From: Desulfobacterales bacterium
Lineage (GTDB): Bacteria > Desulfobacterota > Desulfobacteria > Desulfobacterales > UBA5852
Length of the DNA stretch: 64,000 bases
Assembly: GCA_963674755.2 (NCBI GenBank)
Contig: CAXXVS010000003.1
Location: 1,216,001 to 1,280,000 of the forward strand
Reading direction: 5' to 3'
Shown here: one piece after another, positions 33,724 to 64,000 of the stretch
How the letters are laid out: each line of letters begins with the position of its first letter
Position numbering within the stretch: position 1 is the first letter of the stretch
Notes under the pieces: model-generated
What the model saw: the letters and a program-made list of their open reading frames with translations, nothing else
Databases searched by the model: none
What the model was told of the DNA's origin: nothing
Program-made: the position numbers and the translations under genes

Positions 33724-36700
33724 TTATTCGATGATCACGGTCGTTTCTGCTCCTGTCGCTGTTGCGGGGACATTGGCCGGAAACTCCGTAGGCATGAGGC
33801 GGCGGAACATGATGTCGCTGCCCTCCTCGCCCTCGTCCAGCCAGACGCCGTAGAAACGCTCGCCATTGGGCGTCATGCGGATCTGAACCTCCCCTTGCTC
33901 CTGGTCGCCCTTGGCCAGACGGTACCAGCCGCTGACGGTTTCGTCGGCATGATTGCCGTCGCTGTCCGGATTCACGACCCAGGTGTCCTCCACCAGGGTG
34001 TTGCCCCGATCCAGGGAGAAGCTCAGGAAAAGGTCCTCCGGAGCCTTCTCCACGTCGGGCAGGTTGGTGGAAGTGCCATAGGCCAGATAGAACACGTCCG
34101 GGTCCTGCTTGTCTTCGGCGATTCCTGTCCAAACACCGTTTACCTTGATCGTGCCGGGTACGGCCACGATCCGCGGCTCGATGACGCTGACCTTGTTGTT
34201 CTTGATCAGGGACACGTTGCGCGCGGGCTCGTAGACGCCGCCGCCTTGATACACGGTGTCGACCGTGTAGTGCTTGGTCGGCTCGGTGACATCGTTGCCC
34301 TCCGCGTCCAACTCCGCCCCGGAAACCCCTTCGGGATCGAAGAAGTAGTCGATGTGGGTGACATCGCCGTCATAATCTGGATCGGTGGTCCAGGTAGCAC
34401 CACCGTCGAAGGAACGCCGGATGTAGAAGTCATACTTGTCGTGGGCTTTGCGTGAGGCCGCCCAGTTGGGGCAGTAGGAGTAGCCCATGATGACGAAGTC
34501 GCCGCGAATCGCACCGCGATGGGCGCGCGCGTCTTCGTAGGGGTTTACGCCCGACTTCCAGGTCAGGCATTCTTCCGGCTGGATCCAGTCGCAGACTTTG
34601 ACGCCGTCACCCTTGGCGCTCTCGGAACGATCGGGATTGATCCAGGTCGTTCCGGGCATCACTGTGCTGACGTTCTGGGCGCCAGGTAGGAAGTTTGCAG
34701 GTGACCAAGGATTGCCCTTTTTGATGGTGCCGTCTTCATTTTTCACCACGCACCGGCGCATCATGATGTCGCTCGGCCGACCGGCACCTTCCTCGCCCTC
34801 TTTATAGAGGACGATCAGCACGGTGCCCGAGTTGTCCGGCTGTTTGAACGAGCCGTCCGTCTTGGTGCCACCGAAGGCGGACGCCTTGGACTGCAGGATG
34901 AACCGGGGACGGCGGGCGTTCTCGTAGGCCAGGATCGGATCACCTTTCCAATCGAGGATCTGTTGGCCGGCCAGGGGGTTGGGGATCGGTTCATAGCCGG
35001 TGATATTGCCTTCCGCATCGTAAATCGGATCTGACCCGAGATACTCCGGCTCCTGAGCATAGACGGGATTGCCGTATTCATCTGTCTCGGGCAGGTTGAG
35101 GATGGTCCCGGCGCTGACCAGGTCCGGCTGGGTGAAGTCGAAGCTGTGGTAGATGGCGTTTTTGCCGTTGTCCGGGACGGATTCATATGGGTCGTAGCCG
35201 CTGCCGTCCTGGGGCTGTTCTCCGGTTCCTGTTGTTTCCGAAGGCCCGGAACCCAAGCCTTTGGTCTCCTCATAGGCCATGATGGCCCAGGCGCTCTTGG
35301 TGCCGTCCTTCTTGGTGTAGGTCTGCAGGAAGAGGTTCGGACGCGTAGCCGAGGTGTTGCCATCCAGCAGCCGGCCGTCGGTGGCCACCGCCACGGTGCG
35401 CTCCGCGCCCTGGTAGTTGGTCTTGGTATAGAGGCCGATTCCGTCGGGTGAGATGCCATTCTCGTAGGACCAGAGATCCTGCTGCAACCACGGAAAGTTA
35501 TCCATGGTTACCTCGGTGATATAGCGGTGGGAGCCGTCTTTGGTATCGTCCGGATCGGGTTGGATGTAGGGATACGGGTCGTAGGGATAGTAAGCCTCGA
35601 TGATCTCGCCGCCTTCCTGGGTGCCGTCCTTCCAAATGCCACCCATGGCTTCGCATTCGGCGCATTTAACGGCTTCGTCCAGGCCGTAGGACACCGCGAT
35701 TACCCGGTCCCGGGGCACCACGTGATTGTAATGGCAACTCACACAGTCGCTGTTGGTAAATCCTCCCAGGTATTCGCCAGCCCCGTCATTGACCACCACC
35801 AGCGGTACCGGCGCCGCTTGGGTGGGGTTCTCACCATGGGGGTCGGTATCATAAGGCACATGGCAGTTGGTGCAATTCATGGTGGACGAGTGGTCACTCG
35901 GTACGGCCCGCAACACGGCGTAGTCAGCGCTCAGGGCATCGGGGTCGTCCGGTGTCACGATGGTGCCCCCGCCCTCGAATTTGACGCAGCGGGTCAGATT
36001 CGCGGTTTCGTAGGTAATGTCGCCCGCGCTGACCGCCGCGATGGGGTTGCCGTCGGCATCCAGCAACTCGGCGTTGTTCGTGTTGACGGCGTCGTTGTCC
36101 GAAATCCGTACCGGCAGCGACATGGGTACCAGAGCCTTGGGCCGGTTGGTCCACGCGATTTCATTGCCCTCATCGTCATATTGCACGGGATGCTCGGGAT
36201 CACCACCGGCCACGAAGTTTTCGTCGAGCTGCGCGTGATCGGCCCAGGTGATATAGCTGTACCAGATGTCGGTCTTGTGGTTGGCTGTGGCGCCACCCCA
36301 GCCAGGGCCGGGACCCTTGGCTTCACCCGGACGCAGCCCCTTGGGGTCTTCCTGCCAGGTGATGGCGAATCCGGCCCCGTCCGCGGCGCCCATGAATACC
36401 TGGTTGGCATCGCGCCGGCCGGAGGTCAGGCGTTCGGGCTTAAACCACACGATGTCGCCGACCTCCTTGTCGGCCCACCAGCCGCCCCTGTCGATTTCGG
36501 CCTGGGTGACGATGACGCCGCGGCAGGTCCAGACCGCACTGTAGGGCACCTCACCCTCTTCGGGGTAGCCCTGTTCGGTATAGTCCACTGAACGCTGAGG
36601 ACCCGAGACGCCCCAGAAATCGTCCGCTACATAAGGATCGTCGTAAGGATAGTCAGGGCCACATTTTTCATTTTCACCAGACCCTGCGCAGGTTTCGCAT

Positions 36701-38367
36701 TCATCGGGAACGCCATCGCCATCCTTATCCGGACAGGCCCGGATCGAATAGCGCGGCTTGCCGCCTTTGGCGAACTTGCTGGTCCAGGCGATCAGGATTT
36801 TATTGCCCTTGACCTGGAAGACCGGTTTCTTGCAGTAGCCATAGTAAGGCTCGCCATTGGCCAGGGTGAACGAACTGCGGTCGGCCATGCGCGAGATGTT
36901 CTTGCGTTTCCAGGTGTGGCCGTCGTCCCGGGACACAGCCGCCCAGACGTCGTGGGCGCCGGTTTCGGGGTCCGCATCGCAGAAGGTGGCGATGATCGGT
37001 TTGGCTTCGGTGGCCGTTCGGATCAAATTTCCATCTTCATCATAGTAAGGGATCGCGGGGGTCCCGGTCTCATCTGTATAATCCACTGGATCGCCGTTGG
37101 CCTTGAGAGCCGGGAACCAGACGCCCATGATGTTGAGCTTGGCCTTAGCGCTGGCCAGCTCTGGCGTGCGTGAGACGCGCTTGCGGAACATGGACGAGCT
37201 CGTGGATTTGCCCAAGTGGGCCTGGGCGTCTTCAGCTGAGACGGCCACCAGGCCAGTTTCGCTCATGGCACGGGCTTCGGTGATGGTCGCCTGGATGATG
37301 TCTTCCACCATTTCATCATCGCTGAAATTGATACTTTCCAGCCCAATGCCTGCCATGGCAGCGGTAAAGGCAGCGGCCACCGTATCGGTAATCAGGATGC
37401 CTTTTTGCGGGGTCGCATCCGCATCCAGGCTTTGGAGCAGGCGGGCCATGTTGATGACCCGCGGGTCGTCGAGGTCGCTGTTGGCGAACATGTCCAGCGG
37501 GGAGATTTTGTGGTCCACCAGGGTGCTGCCGATGGGGATGCCGCCGATGGAGAGCTCCACGGTCTCGCCCGGGAAATAGTCGAAAGCCCCGGATTCGTCA
37601 GTCAGCCCGTTGTGGGTCGGGGTCTGGAAGGTCATACCTTCCACCGGCGAGTCGATGAAGTGGGCCCGCCGCGGGTGGGCCATCTCGTAGGTGGCGAAGC
37701 CCCAATGGCTGAGGATTTTCTGTTTGAGGAAGCCGTTGACGTGGTTGTGGCGTTCGCGGTTGGCGTTGCCTTTGACAACGATGTGACGGACTTTGCCGAG
37801 ACCCGATACCAGGGCTTCGCTTTCTGGTCCCGTCGCCTCGAATTCCGGATCGACCATCCAGACATCGCGTTGGGAAAGAATTTTCCCCCTGATGCGGTCC
37901 ACAAAAACAAAAACCCCATGGACGCACAGGTTTTGCAGCCGCAGCGCCTCATAGGGCTGCCCCCAACGAAAATCCATGTCCTCTTCCAGATCGAGGACCA
38001 AGGCATACTGGCCGGCGGGCTCCTCGTATTGCACCCGGTAGGGGAAGACGTCTAGGTCGGGCGTACCGTTCGGTTTGAGGGGTACCGGATCGTTGCCCAC
38101 GTAGATGTCGAGCTTCTTGATTTTCCATTCGCCGCTGGCGTCCTGGCAGGTCAGATCTTCGGGCGTTACCCGGATTTGCAGCTTGACGCGGGTGTTCCAG
38201 ATCGCGACGCTACCGGTGGCGGGGTAGGTCAGCCAACCATCGTCGGTTAACTCGCATCGGTAGAGGTTGTTCTGCATGAGGCCGCCGGGACCTTGGTAAG
38301 CCCAACCCAAGGTCGGCAGGAGCGCGAGTAGGAGCCCTGTAATCAAACAACGATGGTGAAATTTCAT
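33724..38367 (-). CDS. Giant secreted protein, 1547 aa; Asp-box propeller-like scaffold (resembles choice-of-anchor O proteins) with two CxxCH
   Basis: Signal peptide MKFHHR..LGWA; Asp-boxes SRDDGHTW, SFDGGATW; RRDANQ, WQEDPKG, NHKTDIWYS, YENARR; CTNCH and CVSCH. Confidence 0.8.
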   Translation of the reverse strand: MKFHHRCLITGLLLALLPTLGWAYQGPGGLMQNNLYRCELTDDGWLTYPATGSVAIWNTRVKLQIRVTPEDLTCQDASGEWKIKKLDIYVGNDPVPLKPNGTPDLDVFPYRVQYEEPAGQYALVLDLEEDMDFRWGQPYEALRLQNLCVHGVFVFVDRIRGKILSQRDVWMVDPEFEATGPESEALVSGLGKVRHIVVKGNANRERHNHVNGFLKQKILSHWGFATYEMAHPRRAHFIDSPVEGMTFQTPTHNGLTDESGAFDYFPGETVELSIGGIPIGSTLVDHKISPLDMFANSDLDDPRVINMARLLQSLDADATPQKGILITDTVAAAFTAAMAGIGLESINFSDDEMVEDIIQATITEARAMSETGLVAVSAEDAQAHLGKSTSSSMFRKRVSRTPELASAKAKLNIMGVWFPALKANGDPVDYTDETGTPAIPYYDEDGNLIRTATEAKPIIATFCDADPETGAHDVWAAVSRDDGHTWKRKNISRMADRSSFTLANGEPYYGYCKKPVFQVKGNKILIAWTSKFAKGGKPRYSIRACPDKDGDGVPDECETCAGSGENEKCGPDYPYDDPYVADDFWGVSGPQRSVDYTEQGYPEEGEVPYSAVWTCRGVIVTQAEIDRGGWWADKEVGDIVWFKPERLTSGRRDANQVFMGAADGAGFAITWQEDPKGLRPGEAKGPGPGWGGATANHKTDIWYSYITWADHAQLDENFVAGGDPEHPVQYDDEGNEIAWTNRPKALVPMSLPVRISDNDAVNTNNAELLDADGNPIAAVSAGDITYETANLTRCVKFEGGGTIVTPDDPDALSADYAVLRAVPSDHSSTMNCTNCHVPYDTDPHGENPTQAAPVPLVVVNDGAGEYLGGFTNSDCVSCHYNHVVPRDRVIAVSYGLDEAVKCAECEAMGGIWKDGTQEGGEIIEAYYPYDPYPYIQPDPDDTKDGSHRYITEVTMDNFPWLQQDLWSYENGISPDGIGLYTKTNYQGAERTVAVATDGRLLDGNTSATRPNLFLQTYTKKDGTKSAWAIMAYEETKGLGSGPSETTGTGEQPQDGSGYDPYESVPDNGKNAIYHSFDFTQPDLVSAGTILNLPETDEYGNPVYAQEPEYLGSDPIYDAEGNITGYEPIPNPLAGQQILDWKGDPILAYENARRPRFILQSKASAFGGTKTDGSFKQPDNSGTVLIVLYKEGEEGAGRPSDIMMRRCVVKNEDGTIKKGNPWSPANFLPGAQNVSTVMPGTTWINPDRSESAKGDGVKVCDWIQPEECLTWKSGVNPYEDARAHRGAIRGDFVIMGYSYCPNWAASRKAHDKYDFYIRRSFDGGATWTTDPDYDGDVTHIDYFFDPEGVSGAELDAEGNDVTEPTKHYTVDTVYQGGGVYEPARNVSLIKNNKVSVIEPRIVAVPGTIKVNGVWTGIAEDKQDPDVFYLAYGTSTNLPDVEKAPEDLFLSFSLDRGNTLVEDTWVVNPDSDGNHADETVSGWYRLAKGDQEQGEVQIRMTPNGERFYGVWLDEGEEGSDIMFRRLMPTEFPANVPATATGAETTVIIE

Positions 38368-38509: not shown

Positions 38510-38525
38510 AGCAATTTGAGTGCCA
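38510..38525 (-). promoter_or_regulatory. sigma54 promoter of the giant gene 33724-38367
   Basis: Minus strand TGGCACTCAAATTGCT, consensus match. Confidence 0.85.
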
Positions 38526-38586: not shown

Positions 38587-38646
38587 ATGAAATATATTTC
38601 ATAATATTGTTGCGAAAGTTTCGTTTGATTATGAAATATATTCCAC
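38587..38646. promoter_or_regulatory. Repeated AT-rich palindromes (candidate activator or repressor sites)
   Basis: ATGAAATATATTTCAT (perfect) and ATGAAATATATTCCAC 44 bp apart, with CGAAAGTTTCG between them. Confidence 0.55.
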
Positions 38647-40585: not shown

Positions 40586-40758
40586 TGTAGCATGACACAA
40601 TTGCGGGAGACCCATAATTGTGTCGCCGCGGCCGGACACCTTTCTGCGAAAACTTCCCCGATTGCTTTCTGCTTCAATACGAATCAGCGTCATTCTTAGG
40701 AACGCAACGATCTGTCCCTCTTTCAATGATGAACGACTTCGGTGGCACAGGATTTGTA
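40586..40758 (+). promoter_or_regulatory. Bipartite enhancer plus sigma54 promoter of the cytochrome operon
   Basis: TGTAGCATGACACA (40586), AGACCCATAATTGTGTC (40608), TGGCACAGGATTTGTA (40743). Confidence 0.7.
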
Positions 40759-40929
40759 AAACCACCATGCCACAGGATCGGCAGACAAGGTCTCCCAAGT
40801 GCGGCAGGATAGTGCAAGACCCCCGGGTCCGTGACGCCCCGCAGCGTTTCCCCCTTTTGCTTTCAAACCGGAGCATTTTCGATAACGCCCAGACGGCGAA
40901 CGATCTTCATGAAAGGAGAACACACCAAA

Positions 40930-41820
40930 ATGGCCAAAAAAATTCATCGACGGGAATTCCTGGCCGGCGGCCTCGGGGCCGGCGCCATGGCGCTGGGGCT
41001 GGGAATCAGACCGGCCCCCTTGCAGGCGAAGGAGTCCGAACCGGAGTCCATTCCGTTTCCGCTGCCCCCACCCGTTGTCCCGCTGGACGTCGCTGCCGTG
41101 CGCCAGACGGCCTATGATCGCTATTTTCAAGGGGGCTGCATGTACGGCGCTGCGGCGGCGCTGGTGGAAGGGCTGCGGGAGGCCTGCCGACCCGCCGCCG
41201 ACGGGAGCGACTACACGGATTGGGATCTCATCCCCACCGGCATGTTCAAATACGGCAGCGGGGGCGTGGCCGGCTGGGGGACGATCTGCGGCATCTTAAA
41301 CGGCACGGCGGCGGTATTGGCCATGGCGGACTATGGTGGCCTTATCGATCAGGTGATGGGATGGTACACGATGCAATGCTTTCCTCTGGCGGACAGCGAC
41401 GATCTAGAGACGTCCGATCGCTCCTACCGGGCCCTGGCGGATAGCGAGGTGCCGGCTCACACGGTATCCGGTTCGCCCTTGTGCCATATCTCCATTGGCA
41501 AATTTTGTGCAGCCGCCGGCATTACGCTCAAGGACGCTTCGGCGGAAGGGATGAATTATAAACAGGACCGCTGTAGCAAAGTCTGTGCGGAGACAGCGGC
41601 TCTGGCGGCCTCGCTGATCAATGCCCAGTTGGCCGAAAGCGCGGAAACCCTTTACACCACACCGGAGTCCTATGCGTCCTGCCTGACCTGCCACGGGACC
41701 ATAAAAGATCAGGTGGGCAAGATGAACTGTCATGGATGCCATTCCACCTCCGAGGTTACGCTTGTCGGGAGCGGGCATGAGCGCAATGTGACAGCACCCA
41801 AGAATCGCAAAAAGCGTTAA
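40930..41820 (+). CDS. Tat-exported C-GCAxxG-C-C-family diheme protein (split-Soret cytochrome c-like)
   Basis: HRREFL Tat motif; GCMYG, GWGTICG, SPLCH, DRCSKV; C-terminal CLTCH and CHGCH. Confidence 0.8.
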   Translation: MAKKIHRREFLAGGLGAGAMALGLGIRPAPLQAKESEPESIPFPLPPPVVPLDVAAVRQTAYDRYFQGGCMYGAAAALVEGLREACRPAADGSDYTDWDLIPTGMFKYGSGGVAGWGTICGILNGTAAVLAMADYGGLIDQVMGWYTMQCFPLADSDDLETSDRSYRALADSEVPAHTVSGSPLCHISIGKFCAAAGITLKDASAEGMNYKQDRCSKVCAETAALAASLINAQLAESAETLYTTPESYASCLTCHGTIKDQVGKMNCHGCHSTSEVTLVGSGHERNVTAPKNRKKR

Positions 41821-41905: not shown

Positions 41906-44323
41906 ATGACACCAATAGCCGTATCAGATTATCACCAGAGACCGTCTGTGGTCGTCGGCACGGGGTTGATCCTGTTTACGATCCTGTTGGTCTGGTGCTT
42001 GCCGGCCATAGCCAAGATTCGCACCTGCGGACCGATTTACCTGCGGGATGCCGACGGGCGGGTCATCAACCCATTGACCGGGGAGAATGCGGATCAACCC
42101 TTCAGCACACGGCAGACCTGCGGCGCCTGCCATGATTACGAGCGCATTACGTCCGGCTACCATTTTCAACAGGGTTGGGATCGCATCCGGGATGATTTCT
42201 CCAAGGAAAAGCCCTGGGTGCTTTCCGACGGCATGATGGGCAAGCAGTGACCGCCCTCTTTTCGCCAGTTGGCGAAAAAGACAAACCAAGTCCCGGAAGC
42301 GATCGACCTCACCGTGTTCGAGTGGGTGACGGCCGGCAGCAATCCCCTCAAAGGCAAACCCGGCTGCGGCGGCTGCCACCCCGGCGGCGGCGGGATGGAA
42401 CGCGATCGCGACGGGCAACGCTACGACCGGCGGCTGGCAGAGCAGCCCGAACTGGCCCGAACATTGGACGGCGACTACCATCGCAGCCAATGGGACCGCA
42501 GCGGGGTGATCGAGGCGGATTGTTTTATCTGCCATCTCCCAGGGTATTACTTCAAGGAACGTATCCGTCAACTCGATCGGTTGAATTTCAAGTGGGCCAT
42601 CGTGGCCGCCACGGGCATCGGGCGGGTGACCGGTGCCGTAAAGGCCGGCGAAACGCCGGAGATTGTCTACAATCGTCGCTACTTCGACGATGACGGCCGC
42701 ATCGTCCTGGATTTGCTCTCGCCCCCGTCATCGGAGAATTGTGTGGCCTGCCATGGCATCGCCGATCTCATTAAACGCGGTTTCTCCTGGAACGAGCGCA
42801 TCAATCACGATGTCCATAATCTTCACGGTCTGGAGTGTGTCCAGTGCCACGCCGGCAACCCGGAGCATAATTTCGCCAAGGGCGATGAAAACATGTCAAC
42901 GGTGCGTGACGATCTCGACAACACCATGTTGACCTGCCGCCAATGCCACATGCAGGGGTTTATGGGGGCGCCCCGGCCGGAGCATACCGGCATCCGCCCC
43001 AACCATCTGGAAAAACTGGGCTGTGAAGTGTGCCACATCCCGGCGGTCTACCGCACGGCCGCCCGGGGGTTGTGCGTGTCCACGGGCAAAGTGGCCAATT
43101 ACCCCATGGCCGGCGCCCAGCACATCGGCGAACGGGTGCGCTGGCAGCCGGATTACCGGCGGGATGCTGACGAGGTACTGAAGCCGGTCAACGCCTTCCA
43201 GGCCAATCTCTATACCAACCGCGACGAAGACGGCCTTTATCATCCGTTGTTCGCCAGGGAGATCGCCGCTGCAGCCAAGATCATGGGCCCGCCGAAAGCC
43301 GCGCCGCAGTCCGATCAGCCCTTGATTCGGGAACCGGAGGACATCCGAGGCATGCTGTCGGCTCTGAAGACGACGCTTACCACGAATCGGCGCTTCGGCC
43401 GTGTTCGTCCGCGCTATCATTTACAGGGACGGATCTACGCCTTGGATGAAGCAGGCCGTCTCGTCGATACCCCGGACACCACCTGGGTGACGGAGGAGAA
43501 GGGGTTCAATATCAGCCACAATGTCGCCCCGACCCACGCGGCCCTGGGTGCCCAGGGGTGCGGCGACTGCCATTTGCGCAGCAGCCATGTCTTCGAGAGC
43601 TGGATTGCCCAGGAGCTGCAATCTCTGGAAACGCACGCCCCTCTGAAAATGAGCGGATTGAGCTGGCGTGGGCGTCCCCTGGCCGACTACCTCAAGGAGC
43701 TGCATGCGCACAATTGGCTGAAATACTACCTCGTTCCCGGATTGTTCACGCTGGTGTTTATCATCGTGGTCCATCGCCTTGTCGGCGGCGGCCTGCGGTC
43801 CGCATCGCTCCTGGGAACATGGACTGTCAACCTGCAGGTGGCCAGAGCTTTGCTGGTCACCTTTCAGGCGCTGGCGATCTCTTTTCTGGCGTTTTCAGGC
43901 CTGGTGTTCTTCTACAACAACATGTCGCTGTTGTTTATCTTCTTCAGCGACATGGAAACGGCCAGCCGTTTGCATGTCGCCATCGGGATCGCCTTCCTGA
44001 TATCAATAGGTCTGGTGAACGTGATTGACCGCCTTTGCGATTTTGCCCCCGGACGCCACCAATCCGGCCGCTACCTTTCCGGGCCCGTCCACCGGAAGTA
44101 TGGACGGGCGGCGGTTCCGGTTTGGCGCTCCTGGACGGACCACCTGGATACGCGCCTCATGTTCACCCTGGCGGTTTCCGGCGGCATCATGCTGTTTCGC
44201 CGTCATTTGGGATTGGAAATCAAATATCTCGTTTCCGCCTGTCACGCCGCCGCTGCGGTGGCTTTCGTGGCGGCCGTTCTGGCCAAGGTCTATTATCGAT
44301 TCACCCGACGGAACACGGGCTGA
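41906..44323 (+). CDS. Octaheme c-type cytochrome with C-terminal cytochrome b-like membrane domain; probable selenoprotein, TGA 42248-42250 read as Sec, 805 aa
   Basis: ORFs 41906..42250 and 42269..44323 are in frame (GMMGKQ-TGA-PPSFRQLAKK); 1+7 CxxCH; hairpin after the TGA; about 5 C-terminal TM helices, two with His. Confidence 0.82.
42257..42281 (+). promoter_or_regulatory. Putative bacterial SECIS hairpin
   Basis: TTTTCGCC-AGTT-GGCGAAAA: 8-bp stem, G at loop position 2, loop 16 nt after the TGA. Confidence 0.78.
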
Positions 44324-44592: not shown

Positions 44593-45012
44593 GATCGGCG
44601 GAAAAATCGCAACGCCGGGTGGCGGGCCGGTTACCGCTAACGCCATCCCAAGATAGGGGGAGTCAACCACTTGCATGCACCATATATAGCGCATTCAGGG
44701 CTATTCCCGGTATCCGATATGAAATTATTTTCTTATTATTAAACGGTCTTTGAGAGCCGCGTATGTCATAATAGATTGATAATATTCAAAAAAAAATGAA
44801 TTTGTCGGGATTGCATGAAATTTGCTTTCACCACAGCTACGATCACTCTCAGACAGACTTCGATCCATTATCGTTCTTGATATCGAGGGTGTTGCCAACG
44901 GCATAGGCAAACCCTGCAAATAGTGTTGATCCATTTAATTCGGTTTAGAGCTTGGCGATGTTCTCCTTGTAGCGCGCCGCTTCCCTTGCGCGCAGACGAC
45001 AGGACGATCCTC

Positions 45013-47107
45013 ATGACCGGTTTGGGCAACCGTTTTCACGAACGATGGTGGGCGAATAACATCTTCTATGTCGGCCTGGCCCTCGGCATTCTCTACTGGG
45101 GGCTTGAATCCGCAATGCACGTCTATATTTTCGATGAAGGCACCCTGGCACAGCAGGTGATCAGCCCGGATGCCCACGAAATCTGGATGCGCCTGATGGT
45201 GGAAGGCCTTCTGGTGGGTTTCAGTTTCTACTGCCAAACCATCATCAACGCCCGGGAGCGGGTGGAAAGCGCCCTGATTCGCCGTGAAAAAGAGGCCAAC
45301 GATATCCTTGAAAACAATCCTGCCGCCATCATGCTCATCGATACAGAGACCCGGCGTATCAGTTGGGTGAACTCCAATGCCGTGCAATTGACCGGCAGTT
45401 CCAAGGAACAGCTCGTCGGTCGCGTCTGCCACGACCATCTCTGCCCTTCAAATCGCGGCAATTGCCCGGTGCTGGACTGGGGGCAGGTCCTGGACCGCTC
45501 CGAGCGGAAATTGATCGCGGCCGAAGGTACCGAGGTCCCCATTTTGAAAAGCGTGACCCGGGTCAACTACAAGGATCGTGAGCATTTGCTGGAGGCGTTT
45601 TTCGATATTACCAAGCAGAAGGAAATGCAGCGGGCCATCAAATCCGCCCATGCCGAACTCGCACAGATTTTTCAGACCGCCTCGGTGGGCATGCGCCTGA
45701 TCGACCGCGATTTCAATATTCTCAAGGTCAACGAAACCTTCGCGCGCCTGTCCGATTTCCCGGCGAATGAAGCCGTGGGCCGCAAATGCTTCGATGTCTT
45801 CTCGGGCGCCAAATGCCATTCGGCGGATTGCCCCCTGATCCAGATCCGCGACGGCCATGATCCTGCTGAATACGAAGTCACCAAGAAACGGACCGACGGT
45901 ACCCAGATTCCCTGCATTCTGCGATCGACCCCCTTCATCGGCCCGGATGGCGAAACCATCGGTATCGTAGAATCCTTTCAGGATATTACCGCCCTGAAGG
46001 CCATCCAGGAGGAGTTGCGGTCCGAGCGGGACAAGCTCCACCGCATCCTGTTCCAGCAATTGGAAGGCGTCGGCATCGTCAATGCCGAATGGCATATCGA
46101 ATACCGCAACGAGACGCTGGATACCATGCTGACCAACGTCGCCGGGCAAAAATGCTACGAGGTGTTCCGCCAGCGCGCAACGCCCTGCGCCCATTGTTAT
46201 ATGAAGGCCTCCATCGCCACGGGCACCATCCAGCGGTGCGAGTTCGATGCGGCCGACGGCAAAAGCTACGAACACACTTACACGCCCTTCGTGGACAGCG
46301 ACTTCCGGAAGAAAGCGGTCATCTCGGTGCGGGATATCACCGAGCGCAAGGCTTCGACCCTGGCGGCGGTACGCTCCGACCGGCTGGCCGCTTTGGGTGA
46401 ATTGGCAGCCGGGGTGGCCCATGAGATCAACAATCCGGTCAACGGGATCATCAACTACGCCCAGATTTTCGTCAACCGGTACCAGACGGACGGAATGATC
46501 AACGATATCAGCGGCCGCATCGTGAAAGAGGGCGACCGGATCGCCCGGATCGTCGAAAGTCTGCTGGCCTTTGCCCGCCAGGACGAAGATGAACGCGCTA
46601 TGACGGCGATCGAGGAGGTCCTGGCGGATTCGCTGACCTTGACGGCGGCCCAGCTGCGCAAAGACGGCATTGCGATCATGCTGGATATGCCGGCCGGTCT
46701 GCCGCCGGTGGAGGTTCACACCCAGAAGATTCAACAGGTCTTTGTGAACCTGATCAGCAATGCCCGTTACGCCCTCAATAAGAAGACGGACAAGGAGACG
46801 AACGGCGGCAAGCAGCTTCGCATCTCCGCCGAAACCGTTGATCAGGAGGGGGGGGGCCTGGCTGCGGATCATCTTCCATGACACCGGCATCGGTATTCCG
46901 GCAGAGGTCATCGACAAAATCATGAATCCCTTTTTTTCCACCAAACCCAAAGGGATGGGGACCGGTCTGGGGCTCAGCATCAGCCATGGCATCATCAACG
47001 ACCATCGCGGAACCCTGACGATTGAAAGCCGCGAAGGTGACTATACGCGTGTTACGATCGATCTGCCGGCAACCGTGCCGGCCGAGGAGGGCAGGTTAGC
47101 GTCATGA
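45013..47107 (+). pseudogene. Membrane PAS x3 sensor histidine kinase, frameshifted at a G9 tract (46848-46856); phase variant or sequencing error
   Basis: AHEINNP H-box and NLISNA N-box in one frame; DTGIG, NPFFSTK and GTGLGL boxes in another frame; G8 would join them. Confidence 0.85.
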
Positions 47108-48804
47108 ACGAGAAAATCCTGGTGGTGGATGACGAAGAGAGTATCCGTTATACGTTCCAGATGTTTCTGGAGGATGAAGGGTACCAGGTAACGACCGCGG
47201 ACAATTACGAGGTAGCCCTCGAGCACATCCAGGCCAGCGAATTCGATCTGGTGTTCATCGATATTATTTTGGAGGGGCGCTCCGGCATCGATTTGCTCCG
47301 CGCCCTGCGCGAACACCGCCCGGGGGTCCCGGTGATCATGATCACCGGGGCGCCGAGCGTCGAAACGGCTTCCGAAGCCCTACGGCTGGGGGCGCTGGAC
47401 TACATCGTCAAGCCGGTGCGCCAGGACAACCTGATGCGGGCCACCACCATGGCCGTTCGCCACAAACAGATGCTGGACGATAGGGAAAGCTGCCGGCAGA
47501 ACATGGAGGCCATTTTTCGCAGCGTCAAGGACGGCATCGTCACCGTGACGGCGGACATGACCGTGATGGAGGTCAATGCCGCGGCGGCGGTCATCTGCGG
47601 TATCCCCAAGGGCGATATTTCACAAAACCCGTTGGCCGCCATGCTGGGCGATTGCAGCGGCGAGTGCCTGAGGGCATTGCATGAGACGCTTAAAAGCCAG
47701 AAGGCCACCCATTTGCACCATATCGAATGCCGCGCCGGACGCCGGCCGGGACAGGTGGTCAGCGTCAGCGTTTCCCCTTTGTTGAGTCGACGCAACAAGT
47801 TTGCCGGGGGCGTTATGGTCCTGCGGGACGAAACACGTCTGCTCAACCTGGAAAGGAACTTGAAGGAACGCCAATTCTACGACCGCCTGATCGGCAATGC
47901 GCCCCGCATGCAGCGGGTCAAAGCGCTGATCAAAGACCTGGCCGGTGTGCCCACCACGGTTTTGTTGACCGGCGAGAGCGGCACCGGTAAGGAGCTGGTG
48001 GTGGACTCCCTGCATTTCCAGGGGGACCGGAGCGACAAGGCCCTGGTCAAAGTCAACTGCTCCGCACTTTCGGACAACCTTCTGGAGAGCGAACTCTTCG
48101 GCCACGTCAAGGGCGCCTTCACGGGGGCGGTCAAGGATCATGTGGGCCGCTTCCAGAAGGCTGATGGCGGGACGATTTTCCTGGACGAGATCGGCGACAT
48201 CTCCCCCAAGATGCAGCTGCGGCTGTTGCGGGCGATCGAGAACATGGAATTCGAGCGGGTCGGCGGCAACACCTCCATCAAGGTGGACGTGCGCATCGTG
48301 GCGGCGACGAACCAGGATCTGCGCCTCAGGGTGGCCCGGGGGCAGTTCCGGGAGGATTTGTTTTACCGGTTGCGCGTGATGGAAATCAATCTTCCGCCAC
48401 TGAGAGAGCGCCGGGAAGACATTCCCCTGCTGGTGAGCCATTTTATCCAGAAATTCAACCGCCGGCTCGGCAAACAGATCAAGACCGTGACGGAAGAAGC
48501 CCTGCGGTCCCTGACCTGTCATGACTGGCCCGGTAATGTGCGCGAGCTGGAAAACATGATCGAGCGGGCCTTTGTCCTCTGTCACCAGTCCACCATCACG
48601 ATGGACCACCTGCCCGAAGAACTGCTGTCCGGATCCCGCTCGCCGATGGGCGGTGCCTATCCGCTCACCGAAGACGAGGAAGTTTCCTCCATTCTGTCCG
48701 CCCTGGAGAAGACGGCCGGCAACAAGAGCCGGGCCGCCCGTCTTCTGGGGTTCAGCCGCAAGACGATCTATCGCAAGATCGAAAAGTATAATTTACACGT
48801 TTGA
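47104..48804 (+). CDS. NtrC-family sigma54 response regulator (REC-PAS-AAA+-HTH)
   Basis: ILVVDDE; GESGTGKE; GAFTGA; WPGNVREL; Fis HTH. Confidence 0.93.
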   Translation: MNEKILVVDDEESIRYTFQMFLEDEGYQVTTADNYEVALEHIQASEFDLVFIDIILEGRSGIDLLRALREHRPGVPVIMITGAPSVETASEALRLGALDYIVKPVRQDNLMRATTMAVRHKQMLDDRESCRQNMEAIFRSVKDGIVTVTADMTVMEVNAAAAVICGIPKGDISQNPLAAMLGDCSGECLRALHETLKSQKATHLHHIECRAGRRPGQVVSVSVSPLLSRRNKFAGGVMVLRDETRLLNLERNLKERQFYDRLIGNAPRMQRVKALIKDLAGVPTTVLLTGESGTGKELVVDSLHFQGDRSDKALVKVNCSALSDNLLESELFGHVKGAFTGAVKDHVGRFQKADGGTIFLDEIGDISPKMQLRLLRAIENMEFERVGGNTSIKVDVRIVAATNQDLRLRVARGQFREDLFYRLRVMEINLPPLRERREDIPLLVSHFIQKFNRRLGKQIKTVTEEALRSLTCHDWPGNVRELENMIERAFVLCHQSTITMDHLPEELLSGSRSPMGGAYPLTEDEEVSSILSALEKTAGNKSRAARLLGFSRKTIYRKIEKYNLHV

Positions 48805-49259: not shown

Positions 49260-52200
49260 ATGCGTCGAAAACAATCGTTTTGGGTGGCCTTGGTGGCTAT
49301 TTGCCTTCTGGGGACGATTTCGCCGGCGATGGCCGACTGGGGCGATGTCACCAACAAATTCAGCATATCGACCTCGGCACCTGTCGCCAATACGAACGTC
49401 GATGGCACGTTCACCACAATCGACGTGACCGTCACATTTTCGGCGGATCTCGATGACGCCATCATGGGGGATCTGCGCCTGCTGGTCGTACCGCTGGATG
49501 GAACGCCCGCCCCTCGCAATCCGGACGGCGAGATGGGGTTGGATGGGTCGAATCCAATAATTTATTACATACTCCCCACAGGCGAAGACGGCGAATTGGT
49601 CCCTAACGAGTCTGTGACCATTACAATGGAAATGGAAGGGAACGTGTCGTCACCGGATTTCAACTTCAGTATCGAAGTCAACGACGAATCCATCGATACC
49701 ACCATCTTTCGCAAAAAAATCTCAAAGACACCGGAGTATTACAGCGGTGAAGGGGGCATCGAGGTGATGCCCCTCTATGTCGAGGCCCGGAGCACCCAGG
49801 GGTATGCCTACACAAGGGATACCCTTAGCGGAGACCTGATTCCCTGTTGCCCGGATGAATGCCCGAATGGCGAGGAGGGGGCCGACGACGTCTGCGGCAT
49901 CTGCGACCCATCCTGCGCCGCATCGGGATACGCCACCGTCAAGCCCCTCGTCGTCACCTATGTCCAGGAGGAGGAGGAGGCCCCTTTCAACAGTGTACCG
50001 AGTTACGATCCCAATGAAGACGGGGTGGCGGATGAAGGTGATCGCTATGCCCACGACATTTATGCGGCGGTATCCTACGATGAAGGATTGACCTGGAAGC
50101 GGCGCAACATTTCGCGCACCTCACTGAAGTCCTCCTTCACCCTGCCCAATGGCGTGTCCTATCCGGGGGATTCCGAGGACGCCGACCTCACTGTCGTAGG
50201 GCCATACGCCTTCGTCACCTGGGTCGACAAATACTGCCGCAGCGGGGATCCCTGGGATATGGAAGCTCAGGACATCGATGATATCTACCAGGTGACCGGT
50301 TCCCAGAAGTCGGTGGACTATCTGGATGTCACCGGCGATGAGGACCCGCGGCCCGACCTGGGGGTGCGGCCCTTTTCCTGCCTGTGGGGCGCCCGGGGCG
50401 TGTTAGACATGGAACCGGAAACCGCCGACGGTGAGGCCAACCCCAATTACGGCACCATCGTCTGGTACAAGGCCGAGCAGCTTTCCACCGGCCGGCGGGA
50501 TGCCAAACGCAACTTCAACGCCGGCATCGAACCTGTGCACGATCCTAATTTGAATGAAAACAACCTGGTCGAGGGTACCGGTGGCTTCGCCGTCTCCTGG
50601 CAGGAGGATCCGAAAGGGCTCAAGACCGGCAAGGGGCGCGGTCCCGGGGCCGGCATGTCCGGCGCCTGCGTCAACCACAAGACCGATATCTGGTACAGCT
50701 ACATCGGCTGGAGCGACTTTGCCACCGTCGACGAGGATTTCGTCTCCAACAGCGACGGCGATGCCGTGCAGGATGGCGACGGGGAATCCATGTCCAATTA
50801 CTTCTGCACCGCCTGCCCCTATGTCTACGATCCGGAGCTCGGCGACGTGGAACATGACATCCTGGCGGGAACGTCCTTCGACAGCTTGCCCGAAGACTGG
50901 GTCTGCCCGCTGTGCGGCGCCGCCAAGGCGGATTTCGAAAAGGACGCCAAGCCCCATGCCCTGGTGCACTTCCATCCGCCGGTGCGGGTAACCGACAACG
51001 CGGTGTGTCGCGAGCGCAACCCCACCGAGATCATGGGGCACGTCCACACCGCCGACCATATCGCCGTCACCGACTGCGACTACTACTACGAGGGCGGCAC
51101 CACCAACCAGCCGCTGGCCTGGGACGATCTGCCCGACGATTGGGCCTGCCCCAAGTGCGGCGGAACGAAAGACACCTTCGAAGCTGAGGCTATCTTCATA
51201 AAATATCGCAACGAGGGTGCGCCCTACTGCGAGTGGTTCGCCAACAACCCACGGGTAGACGGCGACGGCAACGAGGTCTCGTCGACAGAGGATGCTTACG
51301 CGGTGGCCTACTACACCACTGATGAGGGCGAGCCGCTGGACGGTAACACCGGGGCCTCCCGGGCCAACCTCTCCCTGGTGAACTGGCAGGGTGAGACCCT
51401 GGCCCTGATGGCCTACGAGGAGACCAAGGGCGTCGGCGCCGGCAGCGACAAGGAGGCGGCCGCCATGGAGCAGGCAGCGCCCCTTCCGCTGGTGAAAATG
51501 GATGACGGCACCTGGGAGGCCGGCTTTACCAACAGCGACTGCCGAAGCTGCCATTATAAGAATGTGGTGCCCCGGGATCGCGTGATTCCGGTCAGCGACC
51601 AAACAATCTGTGAAGAGGTGAAGGGTGGGGTCTGGAAGGAGGAACTCGAAGCGTACTTCCCTTACACCGGCTATCCCTACATCACCGATCAGTCGGTGGA
51701 CGTCGGTCAGCTGGCCGCCGACGGAGTATCCTATGACACCAGCAACGCGGTCAAATGCGTCAAGTTTCAGGGCGGCTGGGGCATGTACCCCCGGGACTAC
51801 GCCCAGATCTACGAAGGCGACAATTACTACAACCTGCCCGACCACATGCCCGGGTGGCATCAGGAGGCGCTGGACTGCACCGGCTGCCACCTGCCATACA
51901 ACACCAAGGATTCGGACGGCGACACGATCAACGATCGTGCCGACATGTGTCCCGGCACGCCCGCCGGCGCCGATGATATCGATATGAATCCTGAAAGCGT
52001 CAACTACGGTTGTTCGGCATCCGAGAGTCCCGACGACCAGGACAACAACAAGGACGAGCCGGATCGCTTCCGGCACGGCAAGAACCTCTACTACCACCAC
52101 TTCGTCTTCAATGATCCGGACTTGGCGGCCATCGGCCACGGCGACCAGATCAACGGCTTCAGCCGGGACGTGCTCGGCCAGGATGATGAGGGCAACGACA

Positions 52201-53702
52201 TTCTCTGGTCGGCCCCGGACACCTACGACCCCTATGAAAACGCTCGCCGGGTGCGGGTGGTACCCAATGACGAACTTGATGAGGAGAGTACCAACGGGAT
52301 CACCTTAGGCCTTCTTTACAAGGAAGGCAAGGACGGCCAGGGTGCGCCGGCCGACGCCATTTTGCGACTATTCCGCGGCGGGTTCGATGTCGCGGATATG
52401 GATCCGGAGCCGCTGAACTTGAGCTCTTCGACGCCCTACCTGTTCCAGAATCCGGATGATGCCGGCAGTGAAGACGGAAGCGGCGACAACCCGGCCGGCG
52501 ACGGCACCGGCGACATGCTGCCCAATCGCAACACACCCAAGATCGATCACTTCTACTGGACCGACGCCAACCTGCACGATCCCACCGGCTATTGGTACAA
52601 GTCAGAGGCCGGCGACAACCTATTCGACGAAGACGGCTACACGCCGGATATCAGTGGCAATCCCTTCGAGAACGTCTTCTCCACCCGCCTGGCCATCCAC
52701 GGCGACCTTGTCCTGGCCGGTTACGCCTACTGCGTCAACTGGTCGGCGGGCAAAAAGGCCAAGGACCACTACGACTTCTATATCCGGGTCTCCGAGGATG
52801 CCGGCGCGAAATGGACCCTGCCGGTCAATGTCTCCCAGCTCAAGAACCACGAGGAGTCGGTGGCCGACTGCCGGGTGATCCTCACGCCGCCGACGCTGGA
52901 TGATTGGGCAATTTACGATTCGCCATATGGTCAACGGATTCCTTTCTCCATGACCGGTGCCCCGGCGATTGAATCCCCGGGAGACTTCAACGAACCCAAC
53001 ACCTTTTTCGTGGGCGTGGGCACCAAGGAGAACATCCCCCAGCCTAGTCCCAACGTAACCGAATTGGAGGAGAGCGAGGTTTTTCTGGACACGTTCTACT
53101 CCCAGGCCAAAATTACGAACGGGGTGATTGAGTTCGAGACCTACCAGAAGGACAATCCCAAGTATATAGAGGGATCCAAACCCTACTTGGACGTCGACGG
53201 TAACCCGACCGATGACGCATGCGCGGAAATCCTCGACGATGACACCGGCACCTGCGTGCCCAACGAGCCCAACCCGGCCTTTCCCGAGCTGGTCGACGAG
53301 TTCAACTGGCTGGCCAAAGGCGACGCCAATCAAGGGGACATTCAGATGACCTGCAACCCCTTCGGCAGCCGCCTGTACACCATCTGGGAACAGGAATTGC
53401 CCATCACTGACGAGGACGGCCAGAAACACTTCCAGGGCTCCGACGTTTGGTTCCGCAAGATCATCTACGAAGAACCGGAGGCCTCCGAAAGCGGGGATGT
53501 GAACGGGGACGGCGACCTGACATGGGACGACGGTCGTGCCATTCTGGACGCCGTCGGCACGACGGCCTATGATGCGGATTTTCTGTGGGCCGGCGACTAT
53601 GACGGTGACTACCGCATTTCCGGCCGGGACTATAGCCGCTGGAAGCGCCTATACACCAAAGACAGCCTTGGCAATAAGAGAAAGAAATGGCGTTCAAAGT
53701 AG
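49260..53702 (+). CDS. Giant secreted protein, 1480 aa, paralog of 33724-38367; two CxxCH, rubredoxin-like inserts, dockerin-like C-terminus
   Basis: AAGGAG RBS; signal peptide ending PAMA; SYDEGLTW, WQEDPKG, NHKTDIWYS, YENARR; CRSCH, CTGCH; CTACPYVYDP..WVCPLC; GDVNGDG..GDYDGD. Confidence 0.82.
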   Translation: MRRKQSFWVALVAICLLGTISPAMADWGDVTNKFSISTSAPVANTNVDGTFTTIDVTVTFSADLDDAIMGDLRLLVVPLDGTPAPRNPDGEMGLDGSNPIIYYILPTGEDGELVPNESVTITMEMEGNVSSPDFNFSIEVNDESIDTTIFRKKISKTPEYYSGEGGIEVMPLYVEARSTQGYAYTRDTLSGDLIPCCPDECPNGEEGADDVCGICDPSCAASGYATVKPLVVTYVQEEEEAPFNSVPSYDPNEDGVADEGDRYAHDIYAAVSYDEGLTWKRRNISRTSLKSSFTLPNGVSYPGDSEDADLTVVGPYAFVTWVDKYCRSGDPWDMEAQDIDDIYQVTGSQKSVDYLDVTGDEDPRPDLGVRPFSCLWGARGVLDMEPETADGEANPNYGTIVWYKAEQLSTGRRDAKRNFNAGIEPVHDPNLNENNLVEGTGGFAVSWQEDPKGLKTGKGRGPGAGMSGACVNHKTDIWYSYIGWSDFATVDEDFVSNSDGDAVQDGDGESMSNYFCTACPYVYDPELGDVEHDILAGTSFDSLPEDWVCPLCGAAKADFEKDAKPHALVHFHPPVRVTDNAVCRERNPTEIMGHVHTADHIAVTDCDYYYEGGTTNQPLAWDDLPDDWACPKCGGTKDTFEAEAIFIKYRNEGAPYCEWFANNPRVDGDGNEVSSTEDAYAVAYYTTDEGEPLDGNTGASRANLSLVNWQGETLALMAYEETKGVGAGSDKEAAAMEQAAPLPLVKMDDGTWEAGFTNSDCRSCHYKNVVPRDRVIPVSDQTICEEVKGGVWKEELEAYFPYTGYPYITDQSVDVGQLAADGVSYDTSNAVKCVKFQGGWGMYPRDYAQIYEGDNYYNLPDHMPGWHQEALDCTGCHLPYNTKDSDGDTINDRADMCPGTPAGADDIDMNPESVNYGCSASESPDDQDNNKDEPDRFRHGKNLYYHHFVFNDPDLAAIGHGDQINGFSRDVLGQDDEGNDILWSAPDTYDPYENARRVRVVPNDELDEESTNGITLGLLYKEGKDGQGAPADAILRLFRGGFDVADMDPEPLNLSSSTPYLFQNPDDAGSEDGSGDNPAGDGTGDMLPNRNTPKIDHFYWTDANLHDPTGYWYKSEAGDNLFDEDGYTPDISGNPFENVFSTRLAIHGDLVLAGYAYCVNWSAGKKAKDHYDFYIRVSEDAGAKWTLPVNVSQLKNHEESVADCRVILTPPTLDDWAIYDSPYGQRIPFSMTGAPAIESPGDFNEPNTFFVGVGTKENIPQPSPNVTELEESEVFLDTFYSQAKITNGVIEFETYQKDNPKYIEGSKPYLDVDGNPTDDACAEILDDDTGTCVPNEPNPAFPELVDEFNWLAKGDANQGDIQMTCNPFGSRLYTIWEQELPITDEDGQKHFQGSDVWFRKIIYEEPEASESGDVNGDGDLTWDDGRAILDAVGTTAYDADFLWAGDYDGDYRISGRDYSRWKRLYTKDSLGNKRKKWRSK

Positions 53703-53893
53703 CAGATCGGCAAGGAAGCATTGAATCATCTTGTGAACGGTGGACTGCACTGATGGTGATTGAGCAGTCCGCCGTCACAGCCCCGTTTCCCTTATAGTGG
53801 GTGCTGATTCCCGCTGTTCCGGAATCCGGTCGGATCGAAGTCCTGACCCGTCAAGGAAACCATCGGAGCCTCTGTCCAAGGAAGGGTGCCGCG

Positions 53894-54097
53894 ATGAAGA
53901 TTGACGAGGCTGCCTTGATGCAAGCCCCTGTGAAAGAGAGAAAAGACTTCGCTGCGATTGGCCCGGAACAGCGGGATCGGCGCTCAGGTATCGACCGGCG
54001 TCAGTTTTCCTACGCCGTTCATTTGCCGGAGAGACGGCGCGGTCGGGAGCGGCGTCGGATGTGGTCGGCCTTGCCAACGGGTGCCGCCGGGCGATAG
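53894..54097 (+). CDS. Small Arg-rich protein with RRSGxDRR/RRxGxERR motifs
   Basis: DRRSGIDRRQFSYAVHLPERRRGRERR; GGAAGG upstream. Confidence 0.6.
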   Translation: MKIDEAALMQAPVKERKDFAAIGPEQRDRRSGIDRRQFSYAVHLPERRRGRERRRMWSALPTGAAGR

Positions 54098-54388
54098 GGC
54101 CTTGCCGGTCTGAGCGTATGAAACCCGCTGATCTTGTGTACAGGCGGTCCTTATTGCCTGCCATCATCAGTGCCAATCGGAGGTTGCGCTTCAACCGCTG
54201 GGGTCATGCGTATTGGAAAAACGGATCTCGATTAAGAGGTAAATAAATTCCCAGTCTAATTGCACGTACTGCTTTTGGCAGACGCCTTCCATAACCGTCA
54301 ACATCACCCGTCGCTGCCGCATTAATTGGCCTTCAGCCTGCAATCGAGACAACGCTATAAATCCAGACTCCCGTGGAAGGGTTGCGCC

Positions 54389-54661
54389 ATGATGGAAAAA
54401 CGTCAGTTTTGCCGCACCGATCTGACGATGCCGGTCAAAGTCCGGCACGGCGCCCGGGTGGCGTGGCAATCCGTGGAAAATATCAGCCGCGGCGGAGCGT
54501 ATATCAGGGGCAAAGCAATGGCCCGGCGGGGCGAGCGCCTGGAACTGGTTTTCAGCTTCCCCGGCCTGGCCGCGCCGATTCCGCTGCCTTGTCGGGTCGT
54601 ACGGCGGGATGCTGCCGGCATCGGTGTCCACTTCATTCCCTATCCGGTGGGCGAATCCTGA
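54389..54661 (+). CDS. Stand-alone PilZ-domain protein
   Basis: RQFCR (RxxxR) and NISRGG (D/NxSxxG) motifs. Confidence 0.8.
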   Translation: MMEKRQFCRTDLTMPVKVRHGARVAWQSVENISRGGAYIRGKAMARRGERLELVFSFPGLAAPIPLPCRVVRRDAAGIGVHFIPYPVGES

Positions 54662-54758: not shown

Positions 54759-54774
54759 TGGCACGATAGATGCT
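54759..54774 (+). promoter_or_regulatory. sigma54 promoter upstream of gspE
   Basis: TGGCACGATAGATGCT. Confidence 0.75.
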
Positions 54775-60986: not shown

Positions 60987-61140
60987 TGTGGCGTGATACA
61001 CTCCTGGTGACCCACAAGTGGGACTTTGTCCCTCCAAGGGTCACACTCCCCGGCCTAGGGGATGGAAACGGTTTGATTTTTTTGATAAAACATCCGCAGT
61101 TGCTGGGTCACAACGCGATGGATTTGGCACGGGTTTTGGA
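60987..61140 (+). promoter_or_regulatory. Bipartite enhancer plus sigma54 promoter of the gspLMC genes
   Basis: TGTGGCGTGATACA (60987), TGACCCACAAGTGGGAC (61008), TGGCACGGGTTTTGGA (61125). Confidence 0.72.
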
Positions 61141-63225: not shown

Positions 63226-63250
63226 CCGTTCTAAACAACCGGACGTGACA

Positions 63251-63960: not shown

Positions 63961-64000
63961 ATGAAACCCATATCAGGCGGCAATTCGATAAGGCTATCCG
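63961..64000 (+). CDS. Start of a truncated ORF, possibly the next T2SS gene
   Basis: GGAGG RBS then ATG, open to the window end. Confidence 0.35.
   Translation, partial: MKPISGGNSIRLS

Follow-up and report, generated by a model that had tools for sequence, protein, structure and literature searches.

A redox-equipped locus of choice-of-anchor O propeller proteins and cytochromes in a Desulfobacterales bacterium

Beta-propellers combined with a c-type heme electron-transfer domain are known from cytochrome cd1 nitrite reductase, the quinohemoprotein alcohol dehydrogenases and hydrazine synthase, and in Shewanella the export of outer-surface cytochromes depends on the type II secretion system (T2SS). 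NF040591, or 'choice-of-anchor O', is a named and widespread family of BNR/sialidase-like proteins that has no assigned function. Here we describe a locus in a Desulfobacterales genome where two giant members of this family lie near a Tat-signal diheme cytochrome, an octaheme cytochrome predicted to contain selenocysteine, a two-component system and T2SS genes. The locus occupies the second half of the stretch analysed (the window), which comprises 64,000 nucleotides (G000:C3:1216001-1280000) of a 6.7 Mb genome in 3 contigs. Gene order was taken from the listing of open reading frames (ORFs) and from Pfam and NCBIfam scans of the window.

We conclude that the island is a genuine locus for redox-equipped surface proteins and is largely undescribed. 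Our preferred reading, to which we give a probability of roughly 45%, is that it is an accessory block of a Desulfosarcina-like bacterium in which three propeller paralogs lie on either side of the T2SS operon and, with the selenocysteine-containing octaheme cytochrome and a split-Soret cytochrome, form one sigma-54-controlled electron-transfer system with a substrate outside the cytoplasm. The initial annotation had likewise treated the island as a single system, and as a previously undescribed combination of genes. Its overall reading is partly supported by the recurrence of the redox genes and by the promoters, but the T2SS link and the novelty of the protein family found no support in the form proposed: the locus is largely undescribed, but the giants belong to the known NF040591, which is found in many phyla and mostly lacks a heme motif.

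Giant 1 is encoded on the minus strand at 33724..38367 (ORF 33724-38403(-), 1559 aa, likely start ATG 38367) and giant 2 on the plus strand at 49261..53702 (ORF 49104-53702(+), 1532 aa, likely start ATG 49261 behind AAAGGAG). NF040591, with a cut-off of 125 bits, matches giant 1 at 534.3 bits and giant 2 at 419.2 bits, each in two stretches, and the two proteins share ~29% identity. A third paralog of 1149 aa without CxxCH scores 692.6 bits and lies ~4 kb past the window end (L076 4530-9822, which is G000:C3:1283530-1288822). The three paralogs fall within 37 kb, and the genome holds no further family members. Both giants have signal peptides, as judged by eye: a Sec-type peptide in giant 1, which begins MKFHH.., and MRRKQSFWVALVAICLLGTISPAMA in giant 2. 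Each also carries two CxxCH motifs, in agreement with an earlier description of two ~1500-aa signal-peptide proteins with such motifs.

The signal peptide of giant 1 is followed by an N-terminal beta-sandwich and helical region and then by the propeller, into which a diheme insert of ~220 aa (CTNCH and CVSCH, about residues 780-997) is placed. The three paralogs resemble the rest of NF040591, where C-terminal ends vary (SLH, dockerin, metal-binding motif), in being large and exported; giants 1 and 2 differ in that the insert cuts the model match into two. Rubredoxin domains had been ascribed to the giants in general. They are present in the insert of giant 2 (PF00301, 84.4 bits, cut-off 23, two stretches) but not in giant 1. 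The first of these domains is complete, with the CxxC...CxxC pattern. The second has three invariant Cys together with an invariant C635 and H648, and is therefore considered a variant site. Among 11 giant-2-type sequences at ~50% identity, neither the two CxxCH motifs nor the rubredoxin cysteines vary. Heme attachment at the CxxCH motifs of the giants is predicted. The C-terminus of giant 2 is weakly dockerin-like.

The diheme insert is optional within NF040591, as two or three CxxCH motifs are found in 50 of the 120 listed homologs (forms of ~1500 aa). At genome loci, heme motifs are present in 17 of 66 family genes; an ORF was counted here if it had at least 700 aa and contained HKTDxW, a motif of the family. 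A search for the diheme module among 1.84 billion representatives returned 15 clusters; nine of the ten clusters of at least 1000 aa carry HKTDxW, and the other five are shorter than 310 aa. No free-standing relative of the module was detectable. The ESM Atlas gave no usable match for the insert, and a PDB sequence search with the NF040591 family profile gave no match.

At least 496 homologs of the NF040591 type were scored, in Desulfobacterota, Chloroflexota, Clostridia, Verrucomicrobiota, Krumholzibacteriia, Gemmatimonadota and others. The closest of the listed homologs are found in a Desulfobacteraceae metagenome-assembled genome (MAG; 83%) and in Desulfosarcina alkanivorans and D. cetonica (71-72%). 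We surveyed 123 loci, of which 75 are from genomes (including Chloroflexota, Clostridia, Actinomycetota, Verrucomicrobiota, Krumholzibacteriia and Gemmatimonadales) and 48 from metagenomes, where giant 2 as a lone query gave nothing and a later scan used an alignment. Among 41 related genomes the family is present in two, that of the window (G000) and G010; a search of the remaining 39 did not detect it. The whole block is common to G000 and G010. We found no paper naming 'choice-of-anchor O' in a search that did not extend to supplementary files, and the 'choice-of-anchor' papers listed there concern other families.

SLH, Big or InlB repeats form the C-terminal end of Clostridial members, and dockerin and PF11617 are found in other family members. 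Because of these Clostridial C-termini, the choice-of-anchor O family is taken, from its domains, to be extracellular in monoderms, which have no outer membrane. To this extent the proposed extracellular location of the giants is supported. In three Desulfobacterota loci (L003 14958-16018, L074 15841-19106 and L069 20810-24222), the region 3' of the family gene encodes an ECF sigma factor, a protein with a CBM48/AMPK1_CBM domain and a DUF2202 protein. These genes constitute a second recurring neighbour set, which is absent from the window.

Two cytochrome genes lie between the giants in an apparent operon. The first (40909..41820, plus strand) encodes the Tat-signal diheme protein, whose RREFLAGG motif is visible. 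The protein noted in the initial annotation aligns with PDB 1H21, the split-Soret cytochrome c of Desulfovibrio desulfuricans (E 2.4e-18); the alignment spans 215 of 247 residues and includes both CxxCH heme motifs and five cysteines. Because its NF047622 score of 101.9 bits lies below the equivalog cut-off of 400 while homology to 1H21 is evident, the alignment identifies it as a distant split-Soret cytochrome c homolog and not an equivalog. It differs from the Desulfovibrio protein in carrying a Tat signal and in sharing an operon with an octaheme gene.

The second gene (41906..44323, plus strand) encodes an octaheme cytochrome c with a fused, divergent four-helix FdnI-like membrane domain, and is interrupted by a TGA codon at 42248-42250. 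When it is read through this codon, the frame is continuous over 805 residues and contains eight CxxCH motifs followed by C-terminal membrane helices, as had been proposed for a membrane-anchored octaheme protein with an in-frame TGA. The predicted selenocysteine is residue 115, after the first heme motif. Eight nucleotides past the UGA is a hairpin resembling a selenocysteine insertion sequence (SECIS), UUUUCGCC-AGUU-GGCGAAAA, at 42259..42278 on the plus strand. The TGA and the 8-bp hairpin are conserved at the nucleotide level in the orthologs of the Desulfobacteraceae MAG and Desulfoprunum benzoelyticum, and the octaheme orthologs compared have protein identities of 49-75%. In 30 full-length homologs, the corresponding column is occupied by Cys (11), Tyr (18) or Thr (1). 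In addition, the genome carries selA, two selB-like genes and two tRNA-Sec predictions. Given the conserved TGA and hairpin, the Cys-containing homologs and this machinery, the TGA is predicted to code for selenocysteine, and we consider this likely. Rfam gave no match at gathering thresholds anywhere in the window, and only chance-level rows around the TGA. In 90 of 120 octaheme homologs the gene is called as beginning just past the TGA site. The locus also adds genomic context to a family of selenocysteine octaheme/cytochrome b proteins that databases annotate as two broken genes.

Described cytochromes resemble this protein in part. MccSep / ExtKL (GSU2937-2936) is a pentaheme selenoprotein polysulfide reductase with selenocysteine in a C-terminal Ig-like domain (PMC13510729). 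It has several features in common with the window protein: both are multiheme cytochromes c in which a single selenocysteine is followed by Pro, both families have Sec/Cys variants and a SECIS-like hairpin past the UGA, and both genes are cut in two in databases. They differ in that MccSep has five conserved hemes, whereas the window protein has eight, carries its selenocysteine behind the first heme motif and includes a fused membrane domain. Membership in the MccSep family was rejected on account of the eight CxxCH motifs and the position of residue 115. Likewise, CbcL of Geobacter sulfurreducens combines a periplasmic multiheme domain with a four-helix membrane domain of the HydC/FdnI type (PMC11492766), as the window protein appears to do. 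However, CbcL has nine hemes rather than eight, and the selenocysteine codon and the divergence of the membrane domain are features of the protein described here. An identity as octaheme tetrathionate reductase was discarded, TIGR04315 giving 32 bits against a cut-off of 375.

The profile of the octaheme family matches FdnI (1KQF_C) in its C-terminal domain with an E-value of 7.7e-27. A PDB sequence search with the window protein (P0004) alone gave no match, and a search with the protein and the profile returned FdnI and a weak NrfA match only.

These cytochromes recur next to the giants elsewhere. Octaheme and/or split-Soret genes adjoin giant-2-type genes in G010, in Desulfoprunum (L069) and on a metagenome contig (L086). 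A synteny search of the kind proposed in the initial annotation thus bears out recurrence of the redox genes beside rubredoxin-type giants in independent lineages, but finds adjacency to gsp genes to be rare. In the genome of the window the split-Soret gene, the octaheme gene and the three paralogs each occur at a single locus. A related arrangement is seen in Malonomonas rubra (L017 7685-17785), where two tandem heme-free paralogs flank a split-Soret-like diheme gene with a Tat signal (11742-12668).

Further evidence for a common system comes from the promoters. The motif TGGCAY-N5-TTG occurs four times in the 64-kb window, with 1.45 occurrences expected, and all four lie in the island, 90-160 nt 5' of giant 1, the cytochrome operon, giant 2 and gspL, each pointing at its gene. 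The predicted promoter of giant 1, TGGCACTCAAATTGCT (38510..38525, minus strand), matches the sigma-54 consensus at 11/11 positions; those on the plus strand are TGGCACAGGATTTGTA (40743..40758, with TTGT as its -12 element) for the cytochrome operon, TGGCATGGAACTTGGA (49100..49115) for giant 2 and TGGCACGGGTTTTG (61125..61138) in the 244-nt gap between gspK and gspL. All four are also present in G010, where the counterparts for giant 1, the cytochrome operon and giant 2 are TGGCATTTATATTGCT, TGGCACAGCAATTGTA and TGGCATGGCTTTTGGA and the gspK-gspL motif is conserved. A promoter of the giant 2 type is found in L067 as well (TGGCATAGATCTTGGA). Because these four sigma-54-type promoters are confined to the island, each point at one of its units and are all retained in G010, the units look co-regulated. 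Across the family, TGGCAY-N5-TTG precedes 7 of 57 genes, compared with 0.013 expected per gene, after genes with <300 nt of upstream sequence were dropped. The strict sigma-54 consensus precedes 9 of 60 family genes, compared with ~0.075 expected per gene; this consensus was replaced by the relaxed -12 pattern after inspection of orthologous loci.

Candidate activator sites lie upstream of these promoters. The half-site GACACAAT is located only 5' of the cytochrome operon, where it forms the inverted repeat GACACAATT-N13-AATTGTGTC (40594..40624, plus strand), and 5' of giant 2, where the palindrome TGTGTCACGACACA and a weaker second copy span 48940..48985 on the plus strand. In both cases the sites are 120-160 nt 5' of the promoter. 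Two copies of another palindrome, TGAAATATATTTCA, 44 bp apart at 38588..38645, are putative activator sites of giant 1. A loose palindrome, TGTGTCNNGACACA, was dropped as a statistic (17 matches, 18.3 expected).

A plausible source of the activator is encoded between the cytochromes and giant 2. A membrane PAS-PAS histidine kinase (44923..47107, plus strand) precedes an NtrC-type regulator with receiver, PAS, sigma-54 AAA+ and HTH_8 domains (47104..48804, plus strand). Orthologs of this pair stand beside family genes at eight loci (L001, L002, L003, L025, L067, L069, L074 and L127), where the regulators have 53-85% identity. By tblastn, which we preferred to a motif-based count that undercounted activators (8 loci), sigma-54 activators are found at 27 of the 75 genome loci, and 8 of these are full orthologs.

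We propose that the NtrC-type regulator activates the sigma-54 promoters of the cytochrome operon and giant 2, and perhaps those of giant 1 and gspL. In this scheme, electrons would pass between the quinone pool and the octaheme/membrane-domain protein, and the split-Soret cytochrome would relay them to the heme and rubredoxin sites of the insert, with the propeller binding or converting the substrate. Finally, the giants, folded and loaded with cofactors, might cross the outer membrane by way of the neighbouring T2SS. That the substrate could be a sulfur or selenium compound is a guess, made solely by analogy with the selenocysteine next to heme in MccSep. The known heme propeller enzymes are similar to the giants in uniting a beta-propeller and c-type heme sites in an exported protein, and the hydrazine synthase chain 5c2v_B is among the generic propeller matches of the giant (Z 10.4). 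They differ in having no sequence relationship to the giants, which are BNR/sialidase-like, have their redox module inserted inside the propeller and in one form include rubredoxin.

A bolder extension would make choice-of-anchor O a new class of extracellular redox enzymes, in which a sialidase-like propeller is wired by a diheme (and rubredoxin) insert, or by a separate split-Soret cytochrome, to the quinone pool through a selenocysteine octaheme/cytochrome b protein, and is exported folded by the T2SS, so that anaerobes could oxidise or reduce an insoluble or polymeric substrate outside the cell. We consider this general claim doubtful. For a large family without a known function, the optional insert with its invariant heme and rubredoxin sites is nonetheless a first testable handle, and the recurring cytochrome partners and the dedicated sigma-54 two-component system provide others. 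If the redox reading is true, the locus represents an unrecognised route for electrons to the cell surface in sediment anaerobes.

A number of observations weigh against the electron-transfer reading. The octaheme family is widespread (196 matches) and adjoins the propeller family in only four places. P0004 has no PF01292 match at E<=0.01, consistent with a divergent membrane domain, and it keeps three of the four conserved His columns, with Lys at the fourth, and has a shortened C-terminus. The -12 elements of the promoters are non-canonical (TTGT, TTGG). An enhancer motif had been described as common to several units; the half-site is indeed found at the cytochrome operon and giant 2, but its count is not above chance (3 in 64 kb, 1.68 expected), and the palindrome upstream of giant 1 differs from it and has its only close matches in the window at that position. 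The kinase and NtrC genes noted in the initial annotation are both present, but a +1 frameshift at a G9 run (46848-46856) breaks the reading frame of the kinase and places its ATP-binding G-boxes in the next frame (46760-47107). Short contigs from a rhizosphere metatranscriptome (X17) are identical to 41996-42174, 43493-43688 and 53532-53702 of the window, stretches that fall within the octaheme gene and at the 3' terminus of giant 2; they are not counted as expression because only contigs are at hand and DNA carry-over is possible.

Further observations weigh against a part for the T2SS, which the initial annotation had included in the system. The genes for GspC, D, E, F, G, H, I, J, K, L and M form one locus, and gspE, F, G, H, I, J, K, L, M and C had correctly been recognised there. 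As a parallel to the Shewanella system, a complete gspC-M plus gspD operon here adjoins heme-bearing exported proteins, but the giants are a predicted cargo and the T2SS is one that the clade has in common. Genes for T2SS components adjoin the family in 7 of the 123 loci (5/75 genome and 2/48 metagenome loci). GspG is found in 31 of the 41 relatives, compared with 2 of 41 for the family, and two of the relatives (G014 and G015) carry an orthologous gsp operon but lack the giants and the rest of the block. The family gene of Desulfosarcina alkanivorans is ~940 kb away from gspG, and in Malonomonas rubra, which has two paralogs, no GspG match was found. A sigma-54-like motif 5' of gspE (TGGCACGATAGATGCT, 54759..54774, plus strand, 10/11 consensus positions) was not found in G010, G014 or G015 and is therefore considered weak. 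By this distribution, the T2SS of the window is the ordinary system of the clade, and export of the giants by it, while plausible, is the weakest link in the proposed mechanism.

The gsp genes lie on the plus strand in the order gspE (55006-56541), gspF (56543-57769), gspG (57785-58219), gspH (ORF 58098-58757), gspI (58754-59206), gspJ (about 59268-59895, its start taken from a repeat), gspK (59892-60971), gspL (61215-62615), gspM (62662-63225), gspC (63245-63898) and gspD (from 63961, cut by the window end; TIGR02517 405.5 bits, cut-off 351.35). MshEN and PilZ domains bind c-di-GMP. GspE has an MshEN domain (E 2.6e-16), and just upstream of its gene is one for a PilZ-domain protein (54326..54661, plus strand; PF07238, E 5.5e-14), which had been pointed out earlier and is not encoded by any of the minus-strand ORFs. 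These domains hint at control of this T2SS by c-di-GMP. The cluster extends past the window with the rest of gspD, a Y1-transposase-like gene, the third paralog, a VKOR-DsbA fusion and a penicillin-amidase-family gene. The third paralog adjoins the VKOR-DsbA fusion, and in G014 and G015 a VKOR-DsbA-like gene is directly 5' of gspE; therefore disulfide formation seems linked to T2SS in this clade.

The giants may instead be surface adhesins, or polymer-binding or hydrolytic sialidase-like proteins without redox catalysis, with the insert a lineage-specific accessory (sensor or stabiliser) and the cytochromes and T2SS mere neighbours. We think this unlikely, although much of the family evidence is compatible with it. 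No CxxCH is found in 70 of the 120 listed homologs (forms of ~1300 aa), and because most members lack a heme motif, the conserved core function need not be redox; this too counts against the electron-transfer reading. The structure prediction that had been suggested supports part of the original picture, with a core modelled as a beta-propeller (pTM 0.70), but the insert was modelled at low confidence. Sialidases rank first among the structural matches of the propeller (Z 12.1, rmsd 5.0, 216 aligned residues), and only generic propellers were matched, unrelated WD40 proteins at Z about 11 comparing with Z about 12 for sialidases. Foldseek with the propeller model likewise returned low-TM generic propellers only. 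The models therefore suggest a propeller of the BNR type but nothing beyond that. The N-terminal 440 residues are modelled as beta-sandwiches and a helical bundle (pLDDT 83); this model gave no Foldseek match at E<=0.001 and common beta-sandwich matches only in a VIA search, the best being the carbohydrate-binding module CBM56 (Z 7.1), as might suit a polymer-binding protein. The SLH, Big or InlB repeats of the monoderm members are typical of surface proteins, and CBM48-domain genes lie downstream in L003, L069 and L074. Against an adhesin or hydrolase, the Pfam BNR match is below its cut-off (17.4 bits, cut-off 27), the redox sites are invariant across the giant-2-type sequences, and cytochrome partners recur at four independent places.

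A respiratory module confined to the periplasm, in which the octaheme and split-Soret cytochromes and the heme-bearing giants all reside there and the T2SS is general and has no specific role, strikes us as slightly less likely still. It would account for the presence of the T2SS in many relatives without the family, for the distance of the family genes from gspG in D. alkanivorans and Desulfoprunum, for the lack of a GspG match in M. rubra, and for the absence of any recognisable anchor or sorting signal in giants 1 and 2. However, it sits poorly with the cell-wall anchoring of monoderm family members and with the T2SS genes that adjoin the family in seven loci of several phyla (L008, L014, L025, L028, L073, L099 and L120). 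In addition, the sigma-54-type motif between gspK and gspL is confined to the two genomes holding giants; in G014 and G015, whose two genes are ~80 nt apart, no such motif was found. That the locus is decaying, with the TGA a true stop, the kinase frameshift a true lesion and the cluster no longer functional in this strain, seems very improbable. At the G9 run, the contigs from runs X1 and X2 read as the window does, with no gap, and thus back the frameshift, and the splitting of the cytochrome by gene callers in most homologs would fit as well. Yet a related marine-sediment population (X4) has one G fewer and the kinase ortholog of G010 is intact; the frameshift is either possible phase variation or a strain-specific lesion. 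Moreover, orthologs of 49-75% identity retain the TGA, the hairpin and the frame that follows, Cys or Tyr is present at the TGA column in 29 of 30 full-length homologs, selA, selB and tRNA-Sec are present, and the remaining genes of the block are all intact.

The remaining genes of the window concern the island less directly. A small Arg-rich ORF (53801..54097, plus strand) follows giant 2; it has 88% identity over 57 aa to a counterpart in G010 and no family match. A gene for a LigB-type dioxygenase (38779-39588, plus strand) lies between giant 1 and the cytochrome operon, and is excluded from the block because it has no match in the compared stretch of G010. At the start of the window is a separate set of NrfD, cytochrome c3 and Cytochrome_cB genes (865-4184); next to it come an RND efflux operon (4795-11154) and a gene for a GAF-sigma54 activator (11945-13504). 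A pair of genes encoding DUF2339 (928 aa) and DUF3999 (462 aa) proteins at 16770-20941 and an autotransporter gene at 21000-23378(-) are unrelated to the island.

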